Source of the DNA: an uncultured archaeon
GTDB lineage: Archaea; Asgardarchaeota; Thorarchaeia; Thorarchaeales; Thorarchaeaceae
Length of the DNA stretch: 32,000 nt
Reading direction: 5' to 3'
Assembly: GCA_964354495.1 (NCBI GenBank)
Contig: CAYHAA010000007.1
Coordinates: forward strand, 30,001-62,000
The first letter of the stretch is position 1, and every line of letters starts with the position of its first letter. Positions 1-32,000 of this stretch are shown here, one piece after another. The notes under the pieces are model-generated. The model was not told the origin of the DNA, ran no database searches, and saw only the letters and a list, made by a program, of their open reading frames with translations. The translations under genes and the position numbers were made by a program.

Positions 1-1232
1 TCATAGAGCTGTGGTTTAGAACCCTCTATCGGACCGTATCGTAACTTTGGGAATACCTTAGAAGATGGGAGCAAAGTTCGAATGTAACGCAATGATGTTT
101 CTTCAACGTATTCATCTCTAGATTTGAGATATTTTTGGAATTGGTTTGGTGATTGCTGTTTGAGAAGATGCTCCGATATGAGTCGTAAATTTCTCAATGC
201 TAAGGATGGATTGAAAACGTAGTATTGTTGATTGTGCTTAATAATCGGACGGAGTGAGATTATTGTATCATTTGTGGGCCATCCTCTCCATTCTGTTTTT
301 GCAGGGCTAAGAAAATCAACATTGTTTCCGAGTTCGCAGCTTAGACATTGCAGAATCTTGTCATCAGTTGTTTTCTGCGGTTCCACTTCAAAAGCATATA
401 ATAATTCCAAGGGGCGTAAATCAGAATGTATGCTTCTTGGTTCGCATTGAACATCTTCCCTTGATTTTAGTAAACCTGTATTGAATTTTCCATGTAATTC
501 TGCTATTGTGTCAAATATATCGCGTTCTTGTTGCATAGTTAAGAGATACTTGCTTTTTACTCTTTGAAAGAACTCATATAGGTCTTGAGCTGAAAAACCA
601 ATTGTGTTTTCTAGGTATTGGCTTTGTTTCCTGAATAGTTCTAGAAATGTTTGATCTAGATGCTGGATATAGGCATCGCCTCTTCTGAACAAATAGGAAA
701 GAATTAGTTTGAATCTCAATTCAGCCTCAACTGGATTCTCTTGATTGGTTACAAATTCAGAGCCGAAATAGTTGGAAACATTCAATTCGAGTTCATTCCA
801 AAGACTGAGAGCTTTTTCTATCTCTGCTCTTTTTGGCTCTTTCCAAGTAGATGAGTAAGGCTTCGAAGTAGCTATACTCATTAAATATTCTATGAGCGAC
901 TCGTCTGTTGAATCAGATGATATTCCCGAGGCTCTAATTTGAACTAATTTTTGAATTTCTGCAATAATCGATAATGGGTTGTATTCTACGACAAGACTTT
1001 CGAATTTGCTTATTATGATATCTACCGCTCTCTTGAAATCCGGTTTTCTATTGCGTAGATTTTCAATGAATAGCTTATGTTGTCTGGAATCCCATCTAGA
1101 TGTAATTGAAATATACTTACCTTCCCTATGGATCGTAAAGGGGCCATGCTCGAAGGTTTCAGAATCATCTATCTTAGATGCTTCTTCTCTAGTGGATTTC
1201 TTTCCTCTATGTATGTACTTCTTCTTCTTCAA
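1..1232 (-). CDS. Large AT-rich hypothetical protein (>410 aa, runs off left edge), possibly with a downstream PD-(D/E)XK/NERD-like nuclease domain
   Basis: Hand translation from TTG at 1232 (GGGAG just upstream; in-frame TAG at 1238-1236) is open to base 1: MKKKKYIHRGKK...WRGWPTNDTIISLRPIIKHNQQYYVF...YLKSRDEYVEE...LLPSSKVFPKLRYG...PQLY(E/D). Not in the ORF track because there is no stop in the window. Sampled 60-mers are 32-40% GC. The nuclease assignment is recalled family resemblance only. Confidence 0.8.
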   Translation of the reverse strand, partial: MKKKKYIHRGKKSTREEASKIDDSETFEHGPFTIHREGKYISITSRWDSRQHKLFIENLRNRKPDFKRAVDIIISKFESLVVEYNPLSIIAEIQKLVQIRASGISSDSTDESLIEYLMSIATSKPYSSTWKEPKRAEIEKALSLWNELELNVSNYFGSEFVTNQENPVEAELRFKLILSYLFRRGDAYIQHLDQTFLELFRKQSQYLENTIGFSAQDLYEFFQRVKSKYLLTMQQERDIFDTIAELHGKFNTGLLKSREDVQCEPRSIHSDLRPLELLYAFEVEPQKTTDDKILQCLSCELGNNVDFLSPAKTEWRGWPTNDTIISLRPIIKHNQQYYVFNPSLALRNLRLISEHLLKQQSPNQFQKYLKSRDEYVEETSLRYIRTLLPSSKVFPKLRYGPIEGSKPQLY

Positions 1233-1252
1233 AACCTATTCTCCCATTTCGT

Positions 1253-1570
1253 GCAGAAGAATCAAACACATAGTTCTACTAAGTCATCGTCACATCGCAA
1301 TAAGAATCCCTTCCTACCCTACACCTCAGGTCGACACGTCAACAGTGTATTCTTGGAATTGCTCAACCAGTGTTGGGCCGTTTCAGCCTGTCCGAACGAG
1401 TCCTCAACAGATTCAAGTCCGTATCATTGTCACATCCCGTTCGGGGGTGTCGTTTCTGTTCCCAGAGCGAGGCTCTCGCCTCCCTGCTTTCACAGGACTG
1501 TTGTCGGTATGAGTCAGGAGTTTCCTCAGCTCTCATCCCGGGGGATAAGTACCGTCAGTTGCACTTCTGC
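1253..1570 (-). ncRNA. rnpB: RNase P RNA, archaeal type A-like; 3' end non-canonical
   Basis: Minus strand shows CR-I GAGGAAACUCC (1527-1517), a P3 hairpin CUUAUCC/GGAUGAG, GNRA hairpins CCUGU-GAAA-GCAGG and GAGGC-GAGA-GCCUC, CR-II AACAGAAAC, P12 CCGAACG/CGUUCGG, CR-III UGAAAC, P5 CUCA/UGAG, P6 CGAC/GUCG, P15 UUCC/GGAA with a GGUA loop, and a candidate P1 GCAGAAG(1570-1564)/CUUCUGC(1259-1253). Ends are approximate. Confidence 0.85.
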
Positions 1571-1602
1571 TCCAGAGCTACATCTCTCTTTATGATTCAA
1601 CT

Positions 1603-1631: not shown

Positions 1632-2642
1632 TCACTCGTCCGCAGAGTGTTTCTTCCACATCTGAGGATATCTCCCTCTGACCATCAAGACACGCTCGCT
1701 GGTAGCCACTATCCCGCTCTTGGCCTTCGCGATCCTCTCACTGTTATCATTGCTCGTTGCCAGCGCAACGGCTTCCCCCTTCAAGGTCTTGATGAGTAAA
1801 AGGTCTCCATTCTTGATGCCTGTGTTCAAACTGAGAACTCCTGTTGCAGCAAGGTCCGCACCGTGGCATATTGCATCAACGGCGGAGTCTCGTATCTGTA
1901 TGAATGGCAAATGGCCTAAGGCGAACTCCGTAGGCAGCAGATATCTGCGAAGGAGTTTCTCGTCACCATTCTCCTTCCAGAAGATGTAGGCGTCTTTCAG
2001 GTCGTACAGAGAACATAGATGCTCGTCCTCCATGAATTTTCCTACCCTTGTTCTACGGAGTTCTCTCATGTGCCCTCCAACACCGAGTGCTTCGCCAATG
2101 TCAAAGCAGAGCTTTCTGACGTAGGTCCCTGCTTGGCATCCAACACGAAAGAGAACGATTCTTCCGCTAATCTCAAGAATCTCATTGTAGTATATCTCGC
2201 GTACTCGTAATACTCGCTTCACAGATGACCTGAGCGGAGGCTTTTGGTAGATCTTCCCTACAAACTCATTGATCACTCGCCGTATCTCTTCCTCTGGAGT
2301 TGGGTGATGGAGTTCAAGAACACAGACGTACTCCTTCCCAGAAGGGATGAGAGCCTGCATTGCCTTTGTGGCATTGCCGACGCCTGTGGGAAGAATACCG
2401 GTCACACCAGGGTCCAATGTTCCTCCGTGACCGACACGGCCCACTTCGAGAATCTTCTTGACCCATGTTGCTACTTCATGGCTGGTTGGTCCCGCTGGCT
2501 TGTCAAGGACTATGATACCATTCTCAAGCAGGTATTTGATTGGAAGATTATCAAGCGAGGAGAATCCATATTCCGGATTTGTAGTGTCTGATGCCCGTTG
2601 AATCACTTCACGAGGTTGGTCTGACGGCAGCAAGCCCACCAT
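1632..2642 (-). CDS. cbf5: H/ACA RNA-guided pseudouridine synthase Cbf5 (TruB family, PUA domain)
   Basis: Motifs LDKPAGPTSHEV, GHGGTLDPGVTG, GTYVRKLC, ELRRTRVG; C-terminal PUA domain; canonical position after rpl14e. Confidence 0.97.
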   Translation of the reverse strand: MVGLLPSDQPREVIQRASDTTNPEYGFSSLDNLPIKYLLENGIIVLDKPAGPTSHEVATWVKKILEVGRVGHGGTLDPGVTGILPTGVGNATKAMQALIPSGKEYVCVLELHHPTPEEEIRRVINEFVGKIYQKPPLRSSVKRVLRVREIYYNEILEISGRIVLFRVGCQAGTYVRKLCFDIGEALGVGGHMRELRRTRVGKFMEDEHLCSLYDLKDAYIFWKENGDEKLLRRYLLPTEFALGHLPFIQIRDSAVDAICHGADLAATGVLSLNTGIKNGDLLLIKTLKGEAVALATSNDNSERIAKAKSGIVATSERVLMVRGRYPQMWKKHSADE

Positions 2643-5240: not shown

Positions 5241-6212
5241 CTATCCAAAGAAACGTTTGAGCATTCTGCATATGACAAGCGCAATCCAGAGGCTGTGATA
5301 TTTGTACCCAGCTCCTTTGAGGAGATACAGAGACCAAGTCCCATCTCTCTTCTGTTGATTCACAAACCAATCAATTGCCTCTCTGATATTCTGATTATTC
5401 GCGGACAATCCCAGTCTCGATAATGTGTCCAGTGTAGATAGGATATCCGTAAACCAGAATGGGTAGGTGATTCTGGTCCAGTAATCAGATGCTTTTCGGT
5501 CAGTGTAATCATCAGCCTTGAATATGCGGGAGGCAAGTTTCTCAGCAGCCAGAAGTATCTCTGGGCGACGATTGTATTTTGGGTGAGCAGCAAAAGATCG
5601 CAGGACGACGCCAGTGATCATATGAGAGAACGCTTTCTCTCTTCTTGGCTGTACAGGCTTTGTCAGTTTTATTACCTCTCCCCATCTAAGACACTCAGTA
5701 CGTAGAGGCACCACCCAACCACCATCATCTTGGCGAATGGAGAGCAACCATTGGAGACCCCGTTCGATAGGCTCATCGTCTATGTATCCTGCCTTGATCA
5801 GAATCTCAAGATATGCTGCAGTGTAGTTCGGACTGTACTGATCACGGTAGATACCTCTGAAATCACCCTCCTCGGTCTGACAACTGAAGAGGAAATCTGC
5901 TGCTCTCTGCACTGAGGGATGGTCTATATTCAGGAGATACTTTTCAACAAGTATACCGAGCTGCCTGAAGGTCTCAAGCTGCCTGTATCCTGAGATCTCG
6001 ATCGGGTCGGTCTTCTTCTTAGGATACTTCCAATGGCCATCCTCCTGTTGTCTTCTCAGTATCTTTGTCACGGGCTGCAAGTTCCAGAGCGAAGTGACTG
6101 GGCCGGGATTCACCCCTCTGAGGTCTCTCGATACTTGGTACTGCAGAGCGTCATCCTCAACACCCTCAAATTGTGGCAATGGGTCATACTTGAGATGATT
6201 GCGCCAGGTCAT
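5241..6212 (-). CDS. Prenyltransferase/squalene-oxidase repeat (QW-motif, alpha/alpha barrel) protein
   Basis: Repeated QxxDGxW-like motifs: RQQEDGHW, CQTEEGDF, IRQDDGGW, QQKRDGTW. Only 323 aa, with no DXDD cyclase motif seen. Confidence 0.75.
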   Translation of the reverse strand: MTWRNHLKYDPLPQFEGVEDDALQYQVSRDLRGVNPGPVTSLWNLQPVTKILRRQQEDGHWKYPKKKTDPIEISGYRQLETFRQLGILVEKYLLNIDHPSVQRAADFLFSCQTEEGDFRGIYRDQYSPNYTAAYLEILIKAGYIDDEPIERGLQWLLSIRQDDGGWVVPLRTECLRWGEVIKLTKPVQPRREKAFSHMITGVVLRSFAAHPKYNRRPEILLAAEKLASRIFKADDYTDRKASDYWTRITYPFWFTDILSTLDTLSRLGLSANNQNIREAIDWFVNQQKRDGTWSLYLLKGAGYKYHSLWIALVICRMLKRFFG

Positions 6213-9587: not shown

Positions 9588-10127
9588 CTATATCTTCTTC
9601 AATCGTACTTCTAGCACGCCATTTCGTATTGCTGATTTCGCCTCGTCTTTCTTCACCTTTGAAGGTAGTTTAATGACCTTATGATAAGGCCTCTCTGGAT
9701 TCTCTGCGTGGATTGTCAGTTCGGTTCCCTTGATCCGGACCTTGATCTCGTCTCTCTCCACTCCAGGCACCTCTGCGACAACGATAATCTCGCCATCTTC
9801 CTCTACAACATCTACTAGGGGTTCAAGAGTATGAGTTTCTCCTTCTTCGCCTGGTGTGCTACCAAATCGCTGTATCATGGGCTTTCCGTCTGGGCCACGA
9901 TTCATGGAGAAACCAAACAGGAACGGACTTGTTCCCTCTTGGTTCTTGAGCATCTCCTCGAAGTTTTCGGGTTTCATGAATGCACCTTGGTTCATCTCTG
10001 ACATCATGCCTTCCATCATCTCTTCGATTTGCCGAAGCATCTCTTCTGGAATGAAATCGCCAAACCAGCGGCGTATCCTTCTTTTTGCTTCATCATCATC
10101 ATTATCATGATCGTTGTCCCAAGACAT
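9588..10127 (-). CDS. hsp20: Archaeal small heat-shock protein Hsp20
   Basis: PFLFGFSMNRGPDGKPMIQRFG, EPLVDVVEEDGEIIVVAEVPGVERDEIKV, AIRNGVLEVRLKK (alpha-crystallin domain). Confidence 0.93.
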   Translation of the reverse strand: MSWDNDHDNDDDEAKRRIRRWFGDFIPEEMLRQIEEMMEGMMSEMNQGAFMKPENFEEMLKNQEGTSPFLFGFSMNRGPDGKPMIQRFGSTPGEEGETHTLEPLVDVVEEDGEIIVVAEVPGVERDEIKVRIKGTELTIHAENPERPYHKVIKLPSKVKKDEAKSAIRNGVLEVRLKKI

Positions 10128-12078: not shown

Positions 12079-12530
12079 TACTTGGACACCTCCAGTTTAC
12101 GCTCTGAAATATACGTTCTAATGTGTGCCGTATTCCGGAATGCATTACCCTTAGCCAATAGGTATAGGTCTCTGTAGGTCCTGCTGGTAATCTTCTTATT
12201 ATCACGAAGCTTGCGTAGTTCTTTTCGCATTGGGCGTATTCTGATCATCCAACGGTCCTTGCCGGTCAGCTTTGCATTGGCCTTGCCTTTCTTCGTGCCA
12301 GGCCCCTTTCTATGGCCCTTTCGCTTCTGTTCGATGACATAACGAGCTCGACCCCGGCTCACACCGGTCGCTGCCCTCCTCTGAATTGCCCTCTCGTCTA
12401 TTAGACGCTTGATGTCTTCTCGAGTGATCGCTAGACTGACTTCATCTTCAAATGTTGGGTCAATCCATACTCTCGAAGTTCCGACTTTCAGAACTTCAGC
12501 AGCTAGTCTCTTTTGAGTGGAGAGTTTCAT
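12078..12530 (-). CDS. rpl19e: 50S ribosomal protein eL19
   Basis: LSTQKRLAAEVLKVGTSRVWIDP, AITREDIKRLI, YRDLYLLAKG. Confidence 0.97.
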   Translation of the reverse strand: MKLSTQKRLAAEVLKVGTSRVWIDPTFEDEVSLAITREDIKRLIDERAIQRRAATGVSRGRARYVIEQKRKGHRKGPGTKKGKANAKLTGKDRWMIRIRPMRKELRKLRDNKKITSRTYRDLYLLAKGNAFRNTAHIRTYISERKLEVSK

Positions 12531-13435
12531 GATTTTTCCTCCTCCAAGTCTAGGTCAGTGAAGAGGTCTTCTTCACCAACCTCTTCAGTGGTGCCTGGAT
12601 TAAGTACCCGAAGTAGCTTCGCATCTGCCGCCGAGAGTATCTCCTGACGCTTTCTTCCTCCTACTGTTCCAGCAATGCGTATTGCATGGATGTCAGGATT
12701 AAGACTCTCTAGGTCCGATGGTCTGAAGACTGGAATCTCGATGAACAGAGATGGATGTAGATTCCGAGTGACCCTGGGCGTTCTGTATCCTGATCTCACC
12801 ATGGCAATTCGTCCATGCTTCTTCTGTCTGGTATAACTGTCGATTCCACGTACTTTGCGCCATCTCCTAGCAACACGAGCCCAGCGGTGTGCATTCTCGT
12901 GATGAAACGGAGGCATACGCATCTTCTTGTTCCGTGCGATTCTCACAAGCCGTTGGTCTACATTCTTGAACCTGAGCGGAACTTCGTGCTTCTCTTTCTT
13001 TTCTTTCTTTACAGCTCTGACCTTTGGCTTGACCTTTGTAGTCTTTGGCTTCTTCGAAGGTTTTGGTTTCTCTGTGGTGACCTCTCCCTTCTTCTCTGAG
13101 ACCTTCTTTGCTGCAGTCTTCTTCGGTGCCTCTTTCTTCGCCTCGACTTTCTCTTTAGACTCCTTCTTCACAGCAGCCTTTTTCTTAGGCACCTCTTCCT
13201 TGGCCTCAGCCTTCTTGGGTTTCACTTCCTTCGTTGGAGCACTCTGAAGGACTTCTTGAGCTGCGGCAATCAGTGTCTGTGCACGGCTCACGCTAAGCCC
13301 ATCTACCTTCTCACCAAGCTTGTCTGCGTTAGCCCGTGATAGACTGAGTACTGTCTTTATTCCAGCCTCTCTGAGCTTCTCCTCAATCTTTGGGCCTAAT
13401 CCGGGCAGGTCTTTTAATTCTGGCTTCTTTGACAT
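12527..13435 (-). CDS. rpl32e: 50S ribosomal protein eL32 with an N-terminal helix-hairpin-helix domain and Lys-rich linker
   Basis: C-terminal eL32 core RWRKVRGIDS..RQKK, GYRTP, LHPS, IAGTVGGRKR; N-terminal LKDLPGLGPKIEEKL HhH motif. Confidence 0.93.
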   Translation of the reverse strand: MSKKPELKDLPGLGPKIEEKLREAGIKTVLSLSRANADKLGEKVDGLSVSRAQTLIAAAQEVLQSAPTKEVKPKKAEAKEEVPKKKAAVKKESKEKVEAKKEAPKKTAAKKVSEKKGEVTTEKPKPSKKPKTTKVKPKVRAVKKEKKEKHEVPLRFKNVDQRLVRIARNKKMRMPPFHHENAHRWARVARRWRKVRGIDSYTRQKKHGRIAMVRSGYRTPRVTRNLHPSLFIEIPVFRPSDLESLNPDIHAIRIAGTVGGRKRQEILSAADAKLLRVLNPGTTEEVGEEDLFTDLDLEEEKS

Positions 13436-13446
13436 TCTGTTGCCTC

Positions 13447-14016
13447 CTATACTATGGACTTCACTACCTCACCCTTTGTCTTCCTAATCACATAGACTCC
13501 ATCCATGAAGACACGTCGGTCCTTGTCGCGGATTCTGCAGGCTTGCTGGATATTTGCGGCACTCTGTGCCACCTGTTCGATGTCTATGCCACTAACGAAG
13601 ATATCATCCTCTGTGGTTCGTATCTTAGCGTCTCCAACAACTCGAGCCTTTCTAATTCCTCGTTCACCGAGGAAGTTCTTGATGAGGACGTCCTTGTCTC
13701 GAATTTCAACGTTGATAGGAAAGTGACTGTAGACTATCTTCATCTGATACTCATAGCCCAGGCGTACTCCGAGCATCATGTTCCGAACGTGCGCTATTAC
13801 CATTCCGACCAGAGCTCTACTTCGTTTTCTGCTGATGCCTGTACCCACATACACCTCACTTCCTTGGATTTTGATCGTTGTCTGTGGTTCAGGAAAAGAA
13901 CGTTTGAGTGTGCCTTTGGGACCCTTTACAGTGACTGTTTTGTCTTCCAAGGAAACCTGACAGTCACTGGGAATCTCAATCGTCTGATGATATACCAACT
14001 CTAACTCTTTTGACAT
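13447..14016 (-). CDS. rpl6: 50S ribosomal protein uL6
   Basis: VTVKGPKGTLKR, YSHFPINV, NFLGER, DRRVFMDGVY. Confidence 0.97.
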   Translation of the reverse strand: MSKELELVYHQTIEIPSDCQVSLEDKTVTVKGPKGTLKRSFPEPQTTIKIQGSEVYVGTGISRKRSRALVGMVIAHVRNMMLGVRLGYEYQMKIVYSHFPINVEIRDKDVLIKNFLGERGIRKARVVGDAKIRTTEDDIFVSGIDIEQVAQSAANIQQACRIRDKDRRVFMDGVYVIRKTKGEVVKSIV

Positions 14017-28752: not shown

Positions 28753-29097
28753 TTACCGCCTTCCAGTAGATACGAAGGACCAATCAACCTGGACCATCTC
28801 ATCCGGAAATCCAAGCTTTGCCAGAACCTCTCCAATGACTCCCCGATGGTCTCCTTGAAGTTCGATATGGCCGTGTTTTGCTGCTCCTCCGCAGGCAAGC
28901 TTGGCCTTAAGTTTTGTAGCCAGGTCACCGAGGTCAATACTCTTGTCAAAACCCGCGACAATAGTGGTCAACCGGCCCCATTTTCTTCGCTCTATGCTCA
29001 CAGCAATCCGAGCCTCTTCCTGTGCGATGGTTTCACAGACGCACAGATCCATAGGTAACCCACAATTTGGGCATATTCCGCCATCGTCATTACTCAC
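28753..29097 (-). CDS. sui1: Translation initiation factor aIF1/SUI1
   Basis: CPNCGLP.DLCVCE.IAQE, LKAKLACGG, IELQGDHR. Confidence 0.96.
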   Translation of the reverse strand: MSNDDGGICPNCGLPMDLCVCETIAQEEARIAVSIERRKWGRLTTIVAGFDKSIDLGDLATKLKAKLACGGAAKHGHIELQGDHRGVIGEVLAKLGFPDEMVQVDWSFVSTGRR

Positions 29098-29311
29098 TAA
29101 GTTGTATACTCCTTAGATTCAGTTTAGCAATATGCTTGGGGAGGTTTTTCACTCTCGGCATATAAACACTCTTCTTACACACCACCAAACGCATCAAAAG
29201 GACTTCTGTTTGCAGTCAACGTCTACCTGCAGTACAGGATGAATGCCAGGTACGTTTCGTCATACTTGTTGGGCAAGAGTAAAGTACGATTCTGCATCTC
29301 AACTTAGACAC

Positions 29312-30916
29312 ATGACAGGTCGAATCTTAATCATTGATGCATTGAGTGCAGGTACTGGCCAACGCCGCAGCTCACGTGATTCCATTGGATGCGGACCAAG
29401 GTCCGTTGCAGGCATTTTCGAGAAACACGGGTTGAATTGCAGAATTCGTAGGGCAGAAGAGGTCTTATCCAAGAAGGGCATCCTTCAGCAGTTCGACCAC
29501 TTGGCCATCAGTGCTATGACCATGGATTCTCCTGCTGTGAGGATGTTGATGAAGCAATGGCAACATAGATCTCGTTCTTCTGGAAGGACGATTATTGGAG
29601 GCCCTATCGCTTCCAACCCTGAGGTCCTGAAGGATCTGAGCGCTGATGTACTGGTGATGGGAGAAGGAGAGGCTACGCTCGAGGAGTTGGTGACTCGGCA
29701 CTTCTTTGAAGACCCTATCGATCTGTCATCAGTGAAGGGGACTGCTTTTCGGGGAGCTCACGGGATTCATGTGACGCCTGCTCGTGAGTTCATCACAACA
29801 GATGCACTCTCACGGGACTACATGCCCTCGATAACCAGGATTATCGACTATCCTACCTATCAGGCAAGTAAGATCTATGTCGAGGTGACTCGGGGATGTT
29901 CGAATTTCAGAAGAACGGCCCTCCCCCTCAGAAATGGAAGGCAGTGTTCTGATTGTGGAAACTGTGACTCAGAGAGATTCGATGTTAGAATGAATTGCCC
30001 GGAGGATATTCCTCCCGGCTGTGGTTTCTGCAGTGTTCCGAGTACATGGGGGCCTCCAAGAAGCCGTTCTCCTGCCGTCATTATGCAGGAGGTGAAGGGA
30101 CTGCTGGAGCTTGGAGTACACCGAATTGTACTTGAGTCTCCTGGATTCCTTGACTATATGCGTGGCTGTGAACCACTCACAGATCCTTGTTATCCCCCTG
30201 CCAATCTTGATGCCATCCGAGACCTCCTTGGTCAACTCAATTCTCTTCCTCAACTTGTGGATGGAACAGCACACATAGCCATCGAGAACATGAAGGCCTG
30301 TCTCTTCACTGAAGCGGTTGCGCTGACGTTGAATGAATCGAAGATATCAAGCTCTCCGAATATTGGCATTGAAACCGGATCCGATGAACACATGAAGGCA
30401 ATTGGCAAGTGTGGAAGCTCTGGTGCCGTGCTCAATGCAGTACGTATCGCAGTGGACCATGACCTGAAACCCTTCGTGTATTTCATTTACGGATTACCGG
30501 GAGAGGATGCAGAGAGCACAAAGGAATCAATCAGGATGATGCGGGCTCTCAGTGATGCTGGAGCTGAGAGAATCATTCTCTATGGTTTCAGACCTCTGCC
30601 TGGGTCTGCTTTCGAGGGTTTTCCGGAGTCTTCAACTAGGGACGAGTTTGGTGCACAGCTTCGTCGCGAGGCAGAGAGAATCAACCGAGAGAAGAAGATT
30701 GACTATCTTGGACGAGTCGTACAGGGGATAGCTGCTGAGCCGTCTTGGGCACAAGTTGGTTATACTATGGTATACCCCCTGCAGGAAGATCCACTCATGA
30801 CAGTTCCTGGGGGTTTTTCGGCAGGCACAATGCTCAAGGTCAGAATCCAGAGGGTTCTGAGCAGCGGACTGGTAGAGGGCGAGATTGTTCCAGAGTCTGA
30901 ATTTGAATCACAATAG
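29312..30916 (+). CDS. B12-binding-domain radical SAM enzyme with a TRAM-like C-terminus
   Basis: N-terminal IIDAL..G.G.R..SRD.IG.GPR; cobalamin-domain-like IIGGP and DVLVMGEGE; EVTRGC...GCGFC; IGIETGS, YFIYGLPGE; beta-rich C-terminal GTMLKVRIQRVLSSGLVEGEIV. ATG 29312. Confidence 0.88.
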   Translation: MTGRILIIDALSAGTGQRRSSRDSIGCGPRSVAGIFEKHGLNCRIRRAEEVLSKKGILQQFDHLAISAMTMDSPAVRMLMKQWQHRSRSSGRTIIGGPIASNPEVLKDLSADVLVMGEGEATLEELVTRHFFEDPIDLSSVKGTAFRGAHGIHVTPAREFITTDALSRDYMPSITRIIDYPTYQASKIYVEVTRGCSNFRRTALPLRNGRQCSDCGNCDSERFDVRMNCPEDIPPGCGFCSVPSTWGPPRSRSPAVIMQEVKGLLELGVHRIVLESPGFLDYMRGCEPLTDPCYPPANLDAIRDLLGQLNSLPQLVDGTAHIAIENMKACLFTEAVALTLNESKISSSPNIGIETGSDEHMKAIGKCGSSGAVLNAVRIAVDHDLKPFVYFIYGLPGEDAESTKESIRMMRALSDAGAERIILYGFRPLPGSAFEGFPESSTRDEFGAQLRREAERINREKKIDYLGRVVQGIAAEPSWAQVGYTMVYPLQEDPLMTVPGGFSAGTMLKVRIQRVLSSGLVEGEIVPESEFESQ

Positions 30917-30971
30917 CTCTAGGCAAAGCTTCATATTGCTAAGGCCCTGGGAGTCAGAACGGTGGCACACC

Positions 30972-31115
30972 GTGGTATACACCTGTCATAACTGTCATCG
31001 AGAAGTAACCCCTGATGGTCTTAGGACACTGCCAGGCGTCAAATGTCCCTACTGCGGTGGCAGAATTCTCTACAAAGTCCGTCCGCCAGTAGTAAAACGC
31101 GTGAAGGGCGCCTGA
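30972..31115 (+). CDS. rpoP: DNA-directed RNA polymerase subunit P (Rpo12)
   Basis: VYTCHNC...VKCPYCGGRILYKVRPPVVKRVK; GTG start after GGTGG. Confidence 0.93.
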   Translation: MVYTCHNCHREVTPDGLRTLPGVKCPYCGGRILYKVRPPVVKRVKGA

Positions 31116-31234
31116 AGATTTCACTCTCTTTGTTCATCACATCATGCCAAGAATCAACATTGTTGTTATCACAGCTGATGCAAGCAGCAGTATCAGAAGG
31201 ATGATAGAGTACACCTTCTTTCGGGTTTCACGCT

Positions 31235-32000
31235 TCAAGTTCGGCCCTCCGTGTTTCCAATCAGAATCATGCCCAGCCTTGTAAGTTCTTCGATTCCCCT
31301 TATTTCTCCATCAAACAATGGAACCTCGGTGATATCGATGTCGGAGAACAGGTCTCTAATGTCTATGAGATTCGTCTGTTGCATCTCATATCGTTTTGTG
31401 CAGAACTTGCAGGATGGATTAGGAGGAACAAGCTGATTCACGACCATATTGGTGGCAGGTATGTGCCATTTGTCTAGGCTAGCGAGCAGACGTTGCGTCT
31501 CGAAGACTGCCATTGCTTCTGGAATCATGACGACAACAAACTGCGTTGTGTCCGGGTCGGAGAGTTCGATACGGGCTGTACGGATCTTATCCTTGGTCTG
31601 TTGAATCATCTCCCAGGAGCTGTCTTCTTCTTGCTTTCCGCCGCCAAACATACTTTTGAGCCCACCCATCATCGCGCTCAGCCGCTGACGAAGGGTCATC
31701 ATTTTGCCCAACCAACTATCCAGGAGGTCTGGCAACTCAAGGAGCTTCAGAGTATGACCTGTGGGTGCAGTATCGAAGATGACCCGATCATAGGAGGAGT
31801 CCTCGATGAACTCGAGTATCTTTCCGAATGCCATTGCCTCATCCGATCCGGGTGGTGTCATGCCTGTCATGTCGCCCATGAGATTCGCAGCCATCTGCGC
31901 CTCAGGACCTGCAGCTCCGGCCCCGATAATGTCTTGGAACTGCTGCATTCCCTTCTCAGTGCTTATTTCCATCGCCCAAAGATTATCGAACCCCTCGATA
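31235..32000 (-). CDS. Get3/TRC40-ArsA family ATPase (5' end beyond the right edge)
   Basis: Frame is open to the edge (IEGFDNLWAMEIS...); PPGSDEAMAF, VIFDTAPTGHTLKLL (switch II), FVVVMIPE...VFETQRL, VVNQL, CKFC. Confidence 0.93.
   Translation of the reverse strand, partial: IEGFDNLWAMEISTEKGMQQFQDIIGAGAAGPEAQMAANLMGDMTGMTPPGSDEAMAFGKILEFIEDSSYDRVIFDTAPTGHTLKLLELPDLLDSWLGKMMTLRQRLSAMMGGLKSMFGGGKQEEDSSWEMIQQTKDKIRTARIELSDPDTTQFVVVMIPEAMAVFETQRLLASLDKWHIPATNMVVNQLVPPNPSCKFCTKRYEMQQTNLIDIRDLFSDIDITEVPLFDGEIRGIEELTRLGMILIGNTEGRT

Follow-up and report, generated by a model that had tools for sequence, protein, structure and literature searches.

The locus described here invites comparison with two kinds of mobile DNA, the TnpB–omegaRNA systems of the IS200/IS605–IS607 group and the genomic islands that occupy structural-RNA genes. 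In IS605 and IS607 elements, the guide is the flank of an earlier insertion. Islands in tRNA and transfer-messenger RNA (tmRNA) genes have been defined in Islander-type work (PMC4383910). Our analysis centres on a 32,000-nucleotide (nt) stretch of a Thorarchaeota metagenome-assembled genome (MAG; contig CAYHAA010000007.1, G000:C7:30001–62000; hereafter, the window), which opens within an AT-rich nuclease gene, ORF743, situated behind rnpB, the gene of the RNase P RNA. The evidence below makes it probable that the two genes belong to a layered island anchored on rnpB, the last segment of which, ~7.2 kb long, broke the native rnpB and brought an rnpB of its own.

Like the islands in tRNA and tmRNA genes (PMC4383910), this island is present or absent at one site among relatives and targets the 3′ end of a structural-RNA gene; displaced 3′ fragments of the target stand as direct repeats at the far end, and tandem arrays arise by repeated use. 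It is distinct from them in that the target is rnpB, no tyrosine integrase is present and many cassettes are tiny (0.6–2 kb). Furthermore, the most recent event in G000 disrupted rnpB from within, and the role of working copy would fall to a xenologue under its own promoter, not to a regenerated native gene. With the IS200/IS605–IS607 TnpB–omegaRNA systems it shares a TNB domain, a conserved right end with target-derived sequence directly on its 3′ side, and the occupation of the same site in a conserved gene in three species. By comparison, G000 retains only a C-terminal TnpB stump; the piece in guide position is an isolated 17–20-mer that gives way to unrelated DNA and runs opposite to the neighbouring rnpB, and the gene targeted encodes an essential ribozyme. 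The literature searched contained no description of rnpB as a target of integration or of TnpB.

Coordinates marked L001 refer to C7:14001–32000, where subtracting 16000 gives the window coordinate and adding 14000 gives the C7 coordinate. Positions within rnpB are numbered on the gene of G012 with a 10-nt lead, and comparisons cover 28 genomes from the genus and 87 from the order. G012 is the closest relative of G000, with 88–92% nt identity over the island flanks (about 90%). Relative to G012, G000 carries ~9.4 kb of extra DNA (C7:21855–31309), the two flanks of which are collinear with G012 on one 138-kb contig. The empty site, with a tsr3-like gene, rnpB and cbf5 adjacent, is found in G012, G013, G001, G003, G004, G002 and G010. 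In G000, the flanks are formed by the native Tsr3-like gene (L001:7273–7854, plus strand; domain search) and by the pseudouridine synthase gene cbf5 (window 1632–2642, minus strand; Pfam TruB_N, TruB_C_2, PUA and DKCLD), the native upstream neighbour of rnpB, which is syntenic with G012 at 92.5% nt identity. When the whole genome was searched with the Rfam model, G000 gave two rnpB matches, both on the minus strand and flanking ORF743, compared with one per relative. Further rnpB-derived copies lie to the left of the window: a complete second gene, two remnants of the 3′ end and, at the far junction, a vestige. The original prediction, made from the window, had proposed an island using rnpB as its attachment site, with a distal att copy or rnpB 3′ part further left and empty sites in relatives. 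The island, the empty sites and the distal copies are all borne out; the rnpB in the window, taken there for the attachment site, is a broken native copy and not an intact attB.

This copy, referred to as copy R (window 1310–1584, minus strand), consists of a promoter-proximal lead and nt 1–275 of rnpB, and is 91% identical to the same part of the G012 gene. Its nt 218–275 are 100% identical to G012, and its 5′ flank with the TATA box resembles that of G012. The archaeal RNase P RNA match (Rfam RF00373; window 1249–1574, minus strand) reaches 110 bits, above the gathering score of 84, as compared with 146–170 bits for most relatives in the genus. Native-type similarity stops at window ~1310 (nt 275), and the last ~60 nt of the match, down to position 1249, form an AT-rich degenerate tail that the covariance model aligns weakly. 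The earlier statement that rnpB similarity ends at the drop in base composition holds for the native-type part and needs correction for this tail. The universally conserved 3′ strand of CR-V/P4 is gone, with UAGAAC..UAUGUGUUUGA in its place, and there is no P1 3′ strand; the covariance-model alignment keeps a perfect P2 3′ strand (CUUCUGC) in the tail. Copy R exceeds the Rfam gathering threshold yet has no full-length match to RF00373, lacking CR-V/P4 and the closing helix.

The native 3′ end is found 7.2 kb from copy R, as remnant 2 (L001:~10061–10125, minus strand; nt ~297–358, 91% identical to G012), which carries the P1 3′ strand. The P1 strands of copy R and remnant 2 are complementary across the 7.2 kb, and native nt ~276–296 are missing between the two. 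With its native promoter, 275 native nucleotides and a degenerate tail, the rnpB of the window appears to be a pseudogene, and copy R is presumably non-functional. An attachment-site junction at rnpB had been envisaged for ORF743; the junction of the nuclease gene lies inside rnpB (nt ~275), not at the att-type core at the 3′ end. An AT-rich spacer of 77 nt (window 1233–1309, minus strand), unique in the genome, separates the break of copy R from the start of ORF743. The spacer weakly resembles the rnpB 3′ tail (z 2.5) and the left end of the TnpB element (z 2.1); neither a decayed rnpB tail nor an insertion-sequence left end is convincing as its origin.

Copy L, the second rnpB (L001:14593–14952, minus strand), is a complete, G007-like gene with an Rfam match at L001:14603–14942 (157.5 bits). 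It covers model positions 1–288 of RF00373, with ACAGAA...GGGGUUA present and a compensated P1: the P1 helix reads GGCCUUGG/CCAAGGCC, compared with AGCUCUGG/CCAGAGCU in the native gene, the differences being compensatory changes. A promoter with a TATA-like TTTTATAG box precedes it (L001:14953–15000, minus strand), within a 5′ flank unlike the native one. The closest allele is that of G007 over both nt 218–275 (95%) and nt 276–304 (90%), and the P1 3′ strand is common to copy L and G007. Exactly the P1 of copy L also occurs in a cbf5-linked rnpB on a 646-nt contig of the G031 bin (G031:C224), and therefore its allele type is the native gene of another lineage in the genus. Since copy R and remnant 2 are of native type and copy L is of G007 type, the native gene is split (nt 1–275, 7.2 kb, nt ~297–358) and copy L is, by allele comparison, a xenologue. 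RNase P RNA would now be supplied by this xenologous copy. An ancient native tandem duplication of rnpB was also considered and is ruled out by the empty sites and the differing allele origins.

Copies R and L share a perfect direct repeat of 207 nt on the minus strand (100% over 207 nt, spacing 2632 nt), located at window 1368–1574 in copy R and, as found by repeat search, at L001:14736–14942 (C7:28736–28942) in copy L. The repeat is a mosaic, being native-type at 8 diagnostic sites and G007-type at 3 clustered sites, and the diagnostic sites just outside it show a clean difference between the two copies. Judged from these sites, the mosaic has the pattern of gene conversion between co-resident copies and argues against misassembly.

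The part of the island nearer to the Tsr3-like gene contains, by domain search, a 256-aa BNR-repeat protein (L001:8425–9195, minus strand) and a 161-aa open reading frame (ORF) of no family (L001:9498–9983, plus strand), with remnant 3 (L001:9301–9332, minus strand; nt 327–358, 81% identical to G012) between them. We propose that these older cassettes entered at the rnpB 3′ end, each leaving a direct repeat of its last ~30–60 nt. A later segment of ~7.2 kb would then have broken the native rnpB between nt ~275 and ~297, bringing with it, in rnpB direction, first the nuclease gene, then the G007-like rnpB and its separate promoter, next a TnpB stump whose guide derives from rnpB, and last a 1222-aa ORF. 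Supply of RNase P RNA would thereby have passed to the xenologous copy L, and gene conversion between the co-resident copies would have kept the 207 nt identical. The native promoter and 5′ part probably survive as a promoter and leader that drive the nuclease gene, because the 77-nt spacer shows no evident TATA box of its own. The 1222-aa ORF (ORF1222; L001:10394–14062, minus strand) has no recognised domain in the domain search and could be assigned to no family; the Atlas offered nothing useful either, its highest feature score being 0.84, to AAA_22 fragments. ORF1222 is multi-copy in the genus at 65–68% nt identity (G000:C44:3934–5333, G031:C401, G015:C20, and C6 and C123 of G014). These copies usually stand 3–4 kb from a TnpB copy, a proximity which suggests that the two are part of a larger mobile unit.

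Insertion at rnpB is not confined to G000. Repeats of the rnpB 3′ end (about 30–37 nt) bound inserts in four other genomes, G027 (rnpB, BNR cassette, 29-nt remnant, tsr3), G030 (rnpB, 0.5 kb, remnant, BNR cassette, remnant, tsr3), G031 (rnpB, two remnants, TnpB end) and G035 (tsr3, remnant, ~0.6 kb, rnpB). G035 and the near-identical G010 form a clean filled/empty pair, in which a 608-nt insert lies between 32-nt direct repeats (30/32 identical) of the rnpB 3′ terminus. The common core of the arrays is rnpB nt ~322–357, and the remnants range from 29 to about 62 nt. At the promoter-proximal junction, rnpB is intact in G027, G030 and G035 but not in G000, where copy R is cut at nt 275 and is without CR-V. 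Comparison of these arrays shows that the att-type use of the rnpB 3′ end recurs in the genus. On G031:C224 (L059, positions 169–574), the cbf5-linked rnpB of the second lineage is followed by another rnpB 3′-end repeat after only 18 nt, which could mark the scar left when a cassette was excised or deleted. On G031:C26 (L049, positions 1850–2940), an insert of ~1.1 kb, which encodes a GNAT acetyltransferase and contains a 136-aa ORF, lies between cbf5 and the rnpB promoter with no duplication of rnpB, so that insertion also takes place on the 5′ side of the gene.

An integrase, which an attachment-site island would be expected to carry on its left, was not found. No recombinase domain was detected in any island ORF, and PF00589 matched neither G000 nor any contig with an rnpB array in the 28 genomes, serine recombinases not having been searched genome-wide. 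Nor is there an integrase between the remnants in G031.

The AT-rich gene behind rnpB was correctly singled out in the original prediction as a co-oriented ORF of more than 410 aa. ORF743 (C7:29001–31232, L001:15001–17232, minus strand; 743 aa, 36% GC) starts with TTG at window 1232, 16 nt past the end of the Rfam match, and its first 410 codons occupy window 1–1232. The predicted composition drop is likewise present with a sharp boundary at window ~1250: GC is 0.34–0.39 over window 1–1200 compared with 0.48–0.52 to the right, the genome as a whole having 48% and the island outside ORF743 45–48%. This low-GC tract (C7:~28950–31250) coincides with ORF743 to within ~50 nt on both sides. The visible residues had been read as the lead-in to a PD-(D/E)XK/NERD nuclease, and the catalytic core indeed follows: just beyond the window edge the protein reads ...LYELDGLVIYDDVLIIIEAKAG..., with the motif ELDGLVIYDDVLIIIEAKAG directly past the edge. 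Among 73 homologues, E411, D413 and K428 are invariant and E426 is nearly invariant, and these residues are placed on strands E410–418 and E421–428 of an AlphaFold model built from the 73-sequence alignment (pLDDT 91.8, pTM 0.91). In VIA-align comparisons, the model matched Upx with Z 11.5 (391 residues, ORF743 69–617 against Upx 32–533), N.BspD6I with Z 11.2 and R.BspD6I with Z 9.5, followed by Can2, SduA, HamA and McrC with Z 6–7. Foldseek with the same model gave weak matches only. Model and residue conservation together establish a predicted PD-(D/E)XK nuclease fold of the NERD superfamily.

Upx is a single-protein, dual PD-(D/E)XK anti-phage nuclease (PDB 9wuf), composed of an N-terminal domain (residues 1–515), a middle domain and a C-terminal domain over ~1270 aa (PMC13099982). 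It is the best structural match of ORF743, which aligns over roughly the Upx N-terminal domain. With 743 aa and one canonical D...ExK core, ORF743 is shorter and is without the middle domain and the C-terminal canonical nuclease domain, and there is no sequence-level similarity between ORF743 and Upx or other solved nucleases. No Pfam match at E 0.01, no PHROG and no PDB sequence match was obtained for ORF743; profile matches to sigma-factor helices in solved structures (E ~1e-3) were weak and judged spurious. GapS1 (NCBIfam NF047931) and NERD (PF08378) show local similarity around the nuclease core. The GapS1 match covers residues 320–462 at 21.8 bits (E 7.5e-5), far below the curated cut-off of 320, and a helical N-terminal region of ~360 residues and a C-terminal domain are left uncovered. 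Within the family, 24/59 members match GapS1 (best E 6e-12), 10/59 match NERD at E ≤ 1e-3 and 25/59 have a C-terminal SEC-C motif, which ORF743 does not contain. The Atlas clusters nearest to ORF743 are partly annotated as NERD.

The ORF743 family is large, with 2373 cluster representatives at E ≤ 1e-3, and sparse in the genus, where homologues of 43–45% identity occur in 3/28 genomes, all at other loci. A related-locus search with nine family sequences returned only four genome loci, and a metagenome scan one short contig that lacks rnpB, so that ORF743 has no intrinsic linkage to rnpB. From its 36% GC and its sparse homologues at other loci, we read ORF743 as horizontally acquired cargo in the form of a single-protein nuclease. 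A Woesearchaeota homologue (JAGVZG010000015.1, L067 841–10338) stands in a co-directional string in which a type IIG restriction–modification gene (Eco57I/MmeI-like) is followed 6 nt later by the homologue and then by a helix-turn-helix protein, DUF488, an unknown ORF and a PLD–SNF2 helicase. This string looks like a defence island, and a role of ORF743 in defence is likely.

Several points weigh against the history proposed here. No recombinase stands in the island or near any rnpB array to account for the integration, and G000 has no PF00589 match. Neither the origin of the 77-nt spacer nor the inverted position of the TnpB relic is accounted for, and the tandem across an exact 207-nt repeat is as given by the MAG assembly. 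Function of copy L and loss of function of copy R are both read from sequence. A single 7.2-kb insertion would be the most economical history. As for defence, the evidence consists of a distant similarity (21.8 vs 320 bits) and one informative neighbourhood, and a Thorarchaeota homologue of ORF743 adjoins RNA polymerase genes.

A different history, which we regard as unlikely, would have the nuclease cassette arrive separately, as a ~2.6-kb circle of ORF743 and a partial rnpB (about nt 1–275) that entered by Campbell-type homologous or site-specific recombination and left the 207-nt repeat as its scar. Such a circle would fit the perfect direct repeats bracketing the cassette 2632 nt apart, the contrast in GC between the cassette (36%) and the rest of the island (45–48%), and the mobility of ORF743, whose relatives sit at unrelated loci, so that the gene moves on its own. 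After a single crossover, however, both copies should be hybrids, one parent contributing the outer parts and the other the inner parts. In G000, by contrast, the 5′-most P1 strand and the 3′ end of copy L co-vary as one foreign gene, whereas the 5′ flank and nt 218–275 of copy R and the distant remnant 2 are all native. The circle would need to have carried native-type nt 218–275 and a foreign-type P1 strand at once, and the repeat itself is a mosaic of both allele types.

The TnpB relic beside copy L raises a further explanation. Only the C-terminal 124 aa, with a Cas12f1-like TNB domain, are left of a TnpB (RuvC and TNB); this ORF lies at L001:14149–14523 and, with the right end of the element, spans L001:14149–14543 on the plus strand. 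G000 also has a full-length TnpB of this family, at C24:~12290–13864. Among TnpB copies of G000 and the genus, homology is lost exactly at ...ACAATGA(A/C)CGGT, defining a common right end ...CAACTTACAATGA(A/C)CGGT, the last 62–66 nt of which recur on contigs C4, C6, C8 and C42 of G000. Directly after the right end in the island, in guide position, comes an inverted 20-nt piece of rnpB (L001:14544–14563, plus strand; a 17–20-nt match), which corresponds to sense nt 267/270–286 and agrees with G012 at 19/20 positions and with G015 and G030 at 20/20. Unrelated DNA separates this piece from copy L, which is oriented the opposite way. The same junction is found in G031, beside a remnant, and in G015; in its exact form it occurs in 3/87 order genomes only (G000, G015 and G031). 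In G015, the right end continues into rnpB nt 267–357 (C40:247–761, L048), and the element therefore sits inside rnpB there. The only rnpB match of G015 ends at a contig edge at nt 272 (C50:24245–24507, L056), so that its rnpB appears interrupted at nt ~267–272 by a TnpB element in the same orientation. G015 may have a second rnpB that is missing from the assembly, the population may be mixed, or the insert may be tolerated in the RNA or removed from it. Two left-end flanks of TnpB elements were obtained, GTAGG| and ATAGA|, and rnpB has TAGGGT 5′ of the 17-mer; a loose search for the right-end pattern gave mostly purine-rich chance flanks.

These features allow an RNA-guided origin, which we hold to be somewhat less likely than the separate circle. 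A TnpB–omegaRNA with a guide to type I rnpB would have cut the native gene near nt 286, and repair would have taken up the TnpB module together with a guide-resistant type II rnpB. The same doubtful standing applies to its extension to the genus, according to which the rnpB islands were spread or anchored by RNA-guided cutting instead of an integrase, with repair through short rnpB homology and with a guide-resistant xenologous rnpB supplied by the element in G000. The arrangement would resemble synthetic 'Cleave and Rescue' gene drives and toxin–antidote elements, in which a nuclease guided to an essential gene is linked to a resistant copy; the likeness holds only under this reading, and in G000 the nuclease (TnpB) is a relic. 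Short-homology repair of guided breaks would explain how att-like repeats of variable length (remnants of 29 to about 62 nt) arise with no integrase present. In addition, the 17–20-nt piece lies exactly at the right-end boundary set by the other copies, and the same junction recurs in G031 and in G015, with the element inside rnpB. The relic guide matches the type I alleles of G006, G030 and G015 exactly and that of G012 with one distal mismatch, and differs from copy L, which like the G007 allele is of type II, by two mismatches and an indel; the G031 guide is of type II and mismatches the rnpB of G031 itself. The native breakpoints (nt 275, 286 and ~297) also cluster where a TnpB cut 15–21 nt from the transposon-associated motif (TAM) would fall.

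Against an RNA-guided origin, TnpB is a 124-aa stump and the TAM is not definable from two left ends. The relic may merely record an ordinary past insertion into rnpB, as in G015, and variation between type I and type II alleles occurs naturally in the genus. Moreover, a TnpB relic is present in only 2 of about 8 cassettes, and its inverted orientation is not predicted. With no more than a stump left of TnpB, no defined TAM and an ordinary past insertion sufficient to explain the relic, guided origin is kept as an open minority hypothesis beside the layered island.

An assembly artefact is improbable. It would require that reads of two co-occurring strains, differing in their rnpB alleles, were merged at the common 207 nt and so produced a false tandem, the true arrangement being one chromosome with a single rnpB and, besides it, either another strain or a small circle. 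The MAG has 3.8% estimated contamination, the G031 bin demonstrably mixes rnpB loci of two lineages, and a 207-nt exact repeat is longer than usual k-mer sizes. On the other hand, the collinearity of both flanks with G012 on one 138-kb contig speaks for the assembly, and the junctions of copy R, spacer and ORF743 and of ORF743, promoter and copy L are unique sequences that must exist in the reads. In the alternative resolution, the native P1 5′ strand would face a foreign 3′ strand that is not its complement, whereas the P1 of the assembled copy L is perfect. Furthermore, the native 3′ end lies 7.2 kb away, as a real insertion predicts, and the mosaic conversion implies co-residence of both copies.

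Finally, an ORF-bearing intron, as the original prediction had also suggested, or a split gene with copy R and remnant 2 acting in trans, would fit the complementarity of the copy R P1 5′ strand with remnant 2 and the interruption of the only detected G015 rnpB by a TnpB element, but is very improbable, as a complete copy with its own promoter makes splicing rescue unneeded, native nt ~276–296 are missing, remnant 2 is without a TATA-like box and follows what looks like the ORF1222 terminator hairpin, and the putative intron would span 7.2 kb with several genes on both strands, no search for bulge–helix–bulge junctions having been made. A trans-split gene was set aside because no promoter precedes remnant 2, the promoter scan being of the sigma-70 type and not informative for archaea.

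Two further differences from G012 were observed near the island. Just upstream of the tsr3-like gene, ~171 nt of G000 (C7:21119–21290, L001:7119–7290) have no counterpart in G012. On the other side, 826 nt (window 5373–6198) absent from G012 lie within the gene string adk, EMC3-like, cmk and cbf5. An ORF at window 5241–6212 (minus strand, 323 aa) has prenyltransferase- or squalene-cyclase-like alpha–alpha toroid repeats (Pfam E 1.6e-9).

Our comparison indicates that insertion at rnpB is recurrent within one Asgard archaeal genus. In one of its genomes, the native gene of an essential ribozyme appears to be broken, with a horizontally acquired allele in its place, which would mean that mobile DNA has driven the displacement of a core informational RNA by a xenologue. 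In practical terms, an Rfam match above threshold, such as the copy in the window, can be a pseudogene. With ORF743, a large, unnamed family of NERD-type nucleases, comprising >2,000 clusters and probably involved in defence, gains a member whose structure is modelled with confidence. The locus offers a test bed for how integrase-less cassettes enter a conserved RNA gene and for TnpB guides against an essential gene as a driver of such entry; if the RNA-guided origin were true, it would represent a selfish element of the 'cleave and rescue' kind that arose in nature, with a ribozyme gene at its centre.

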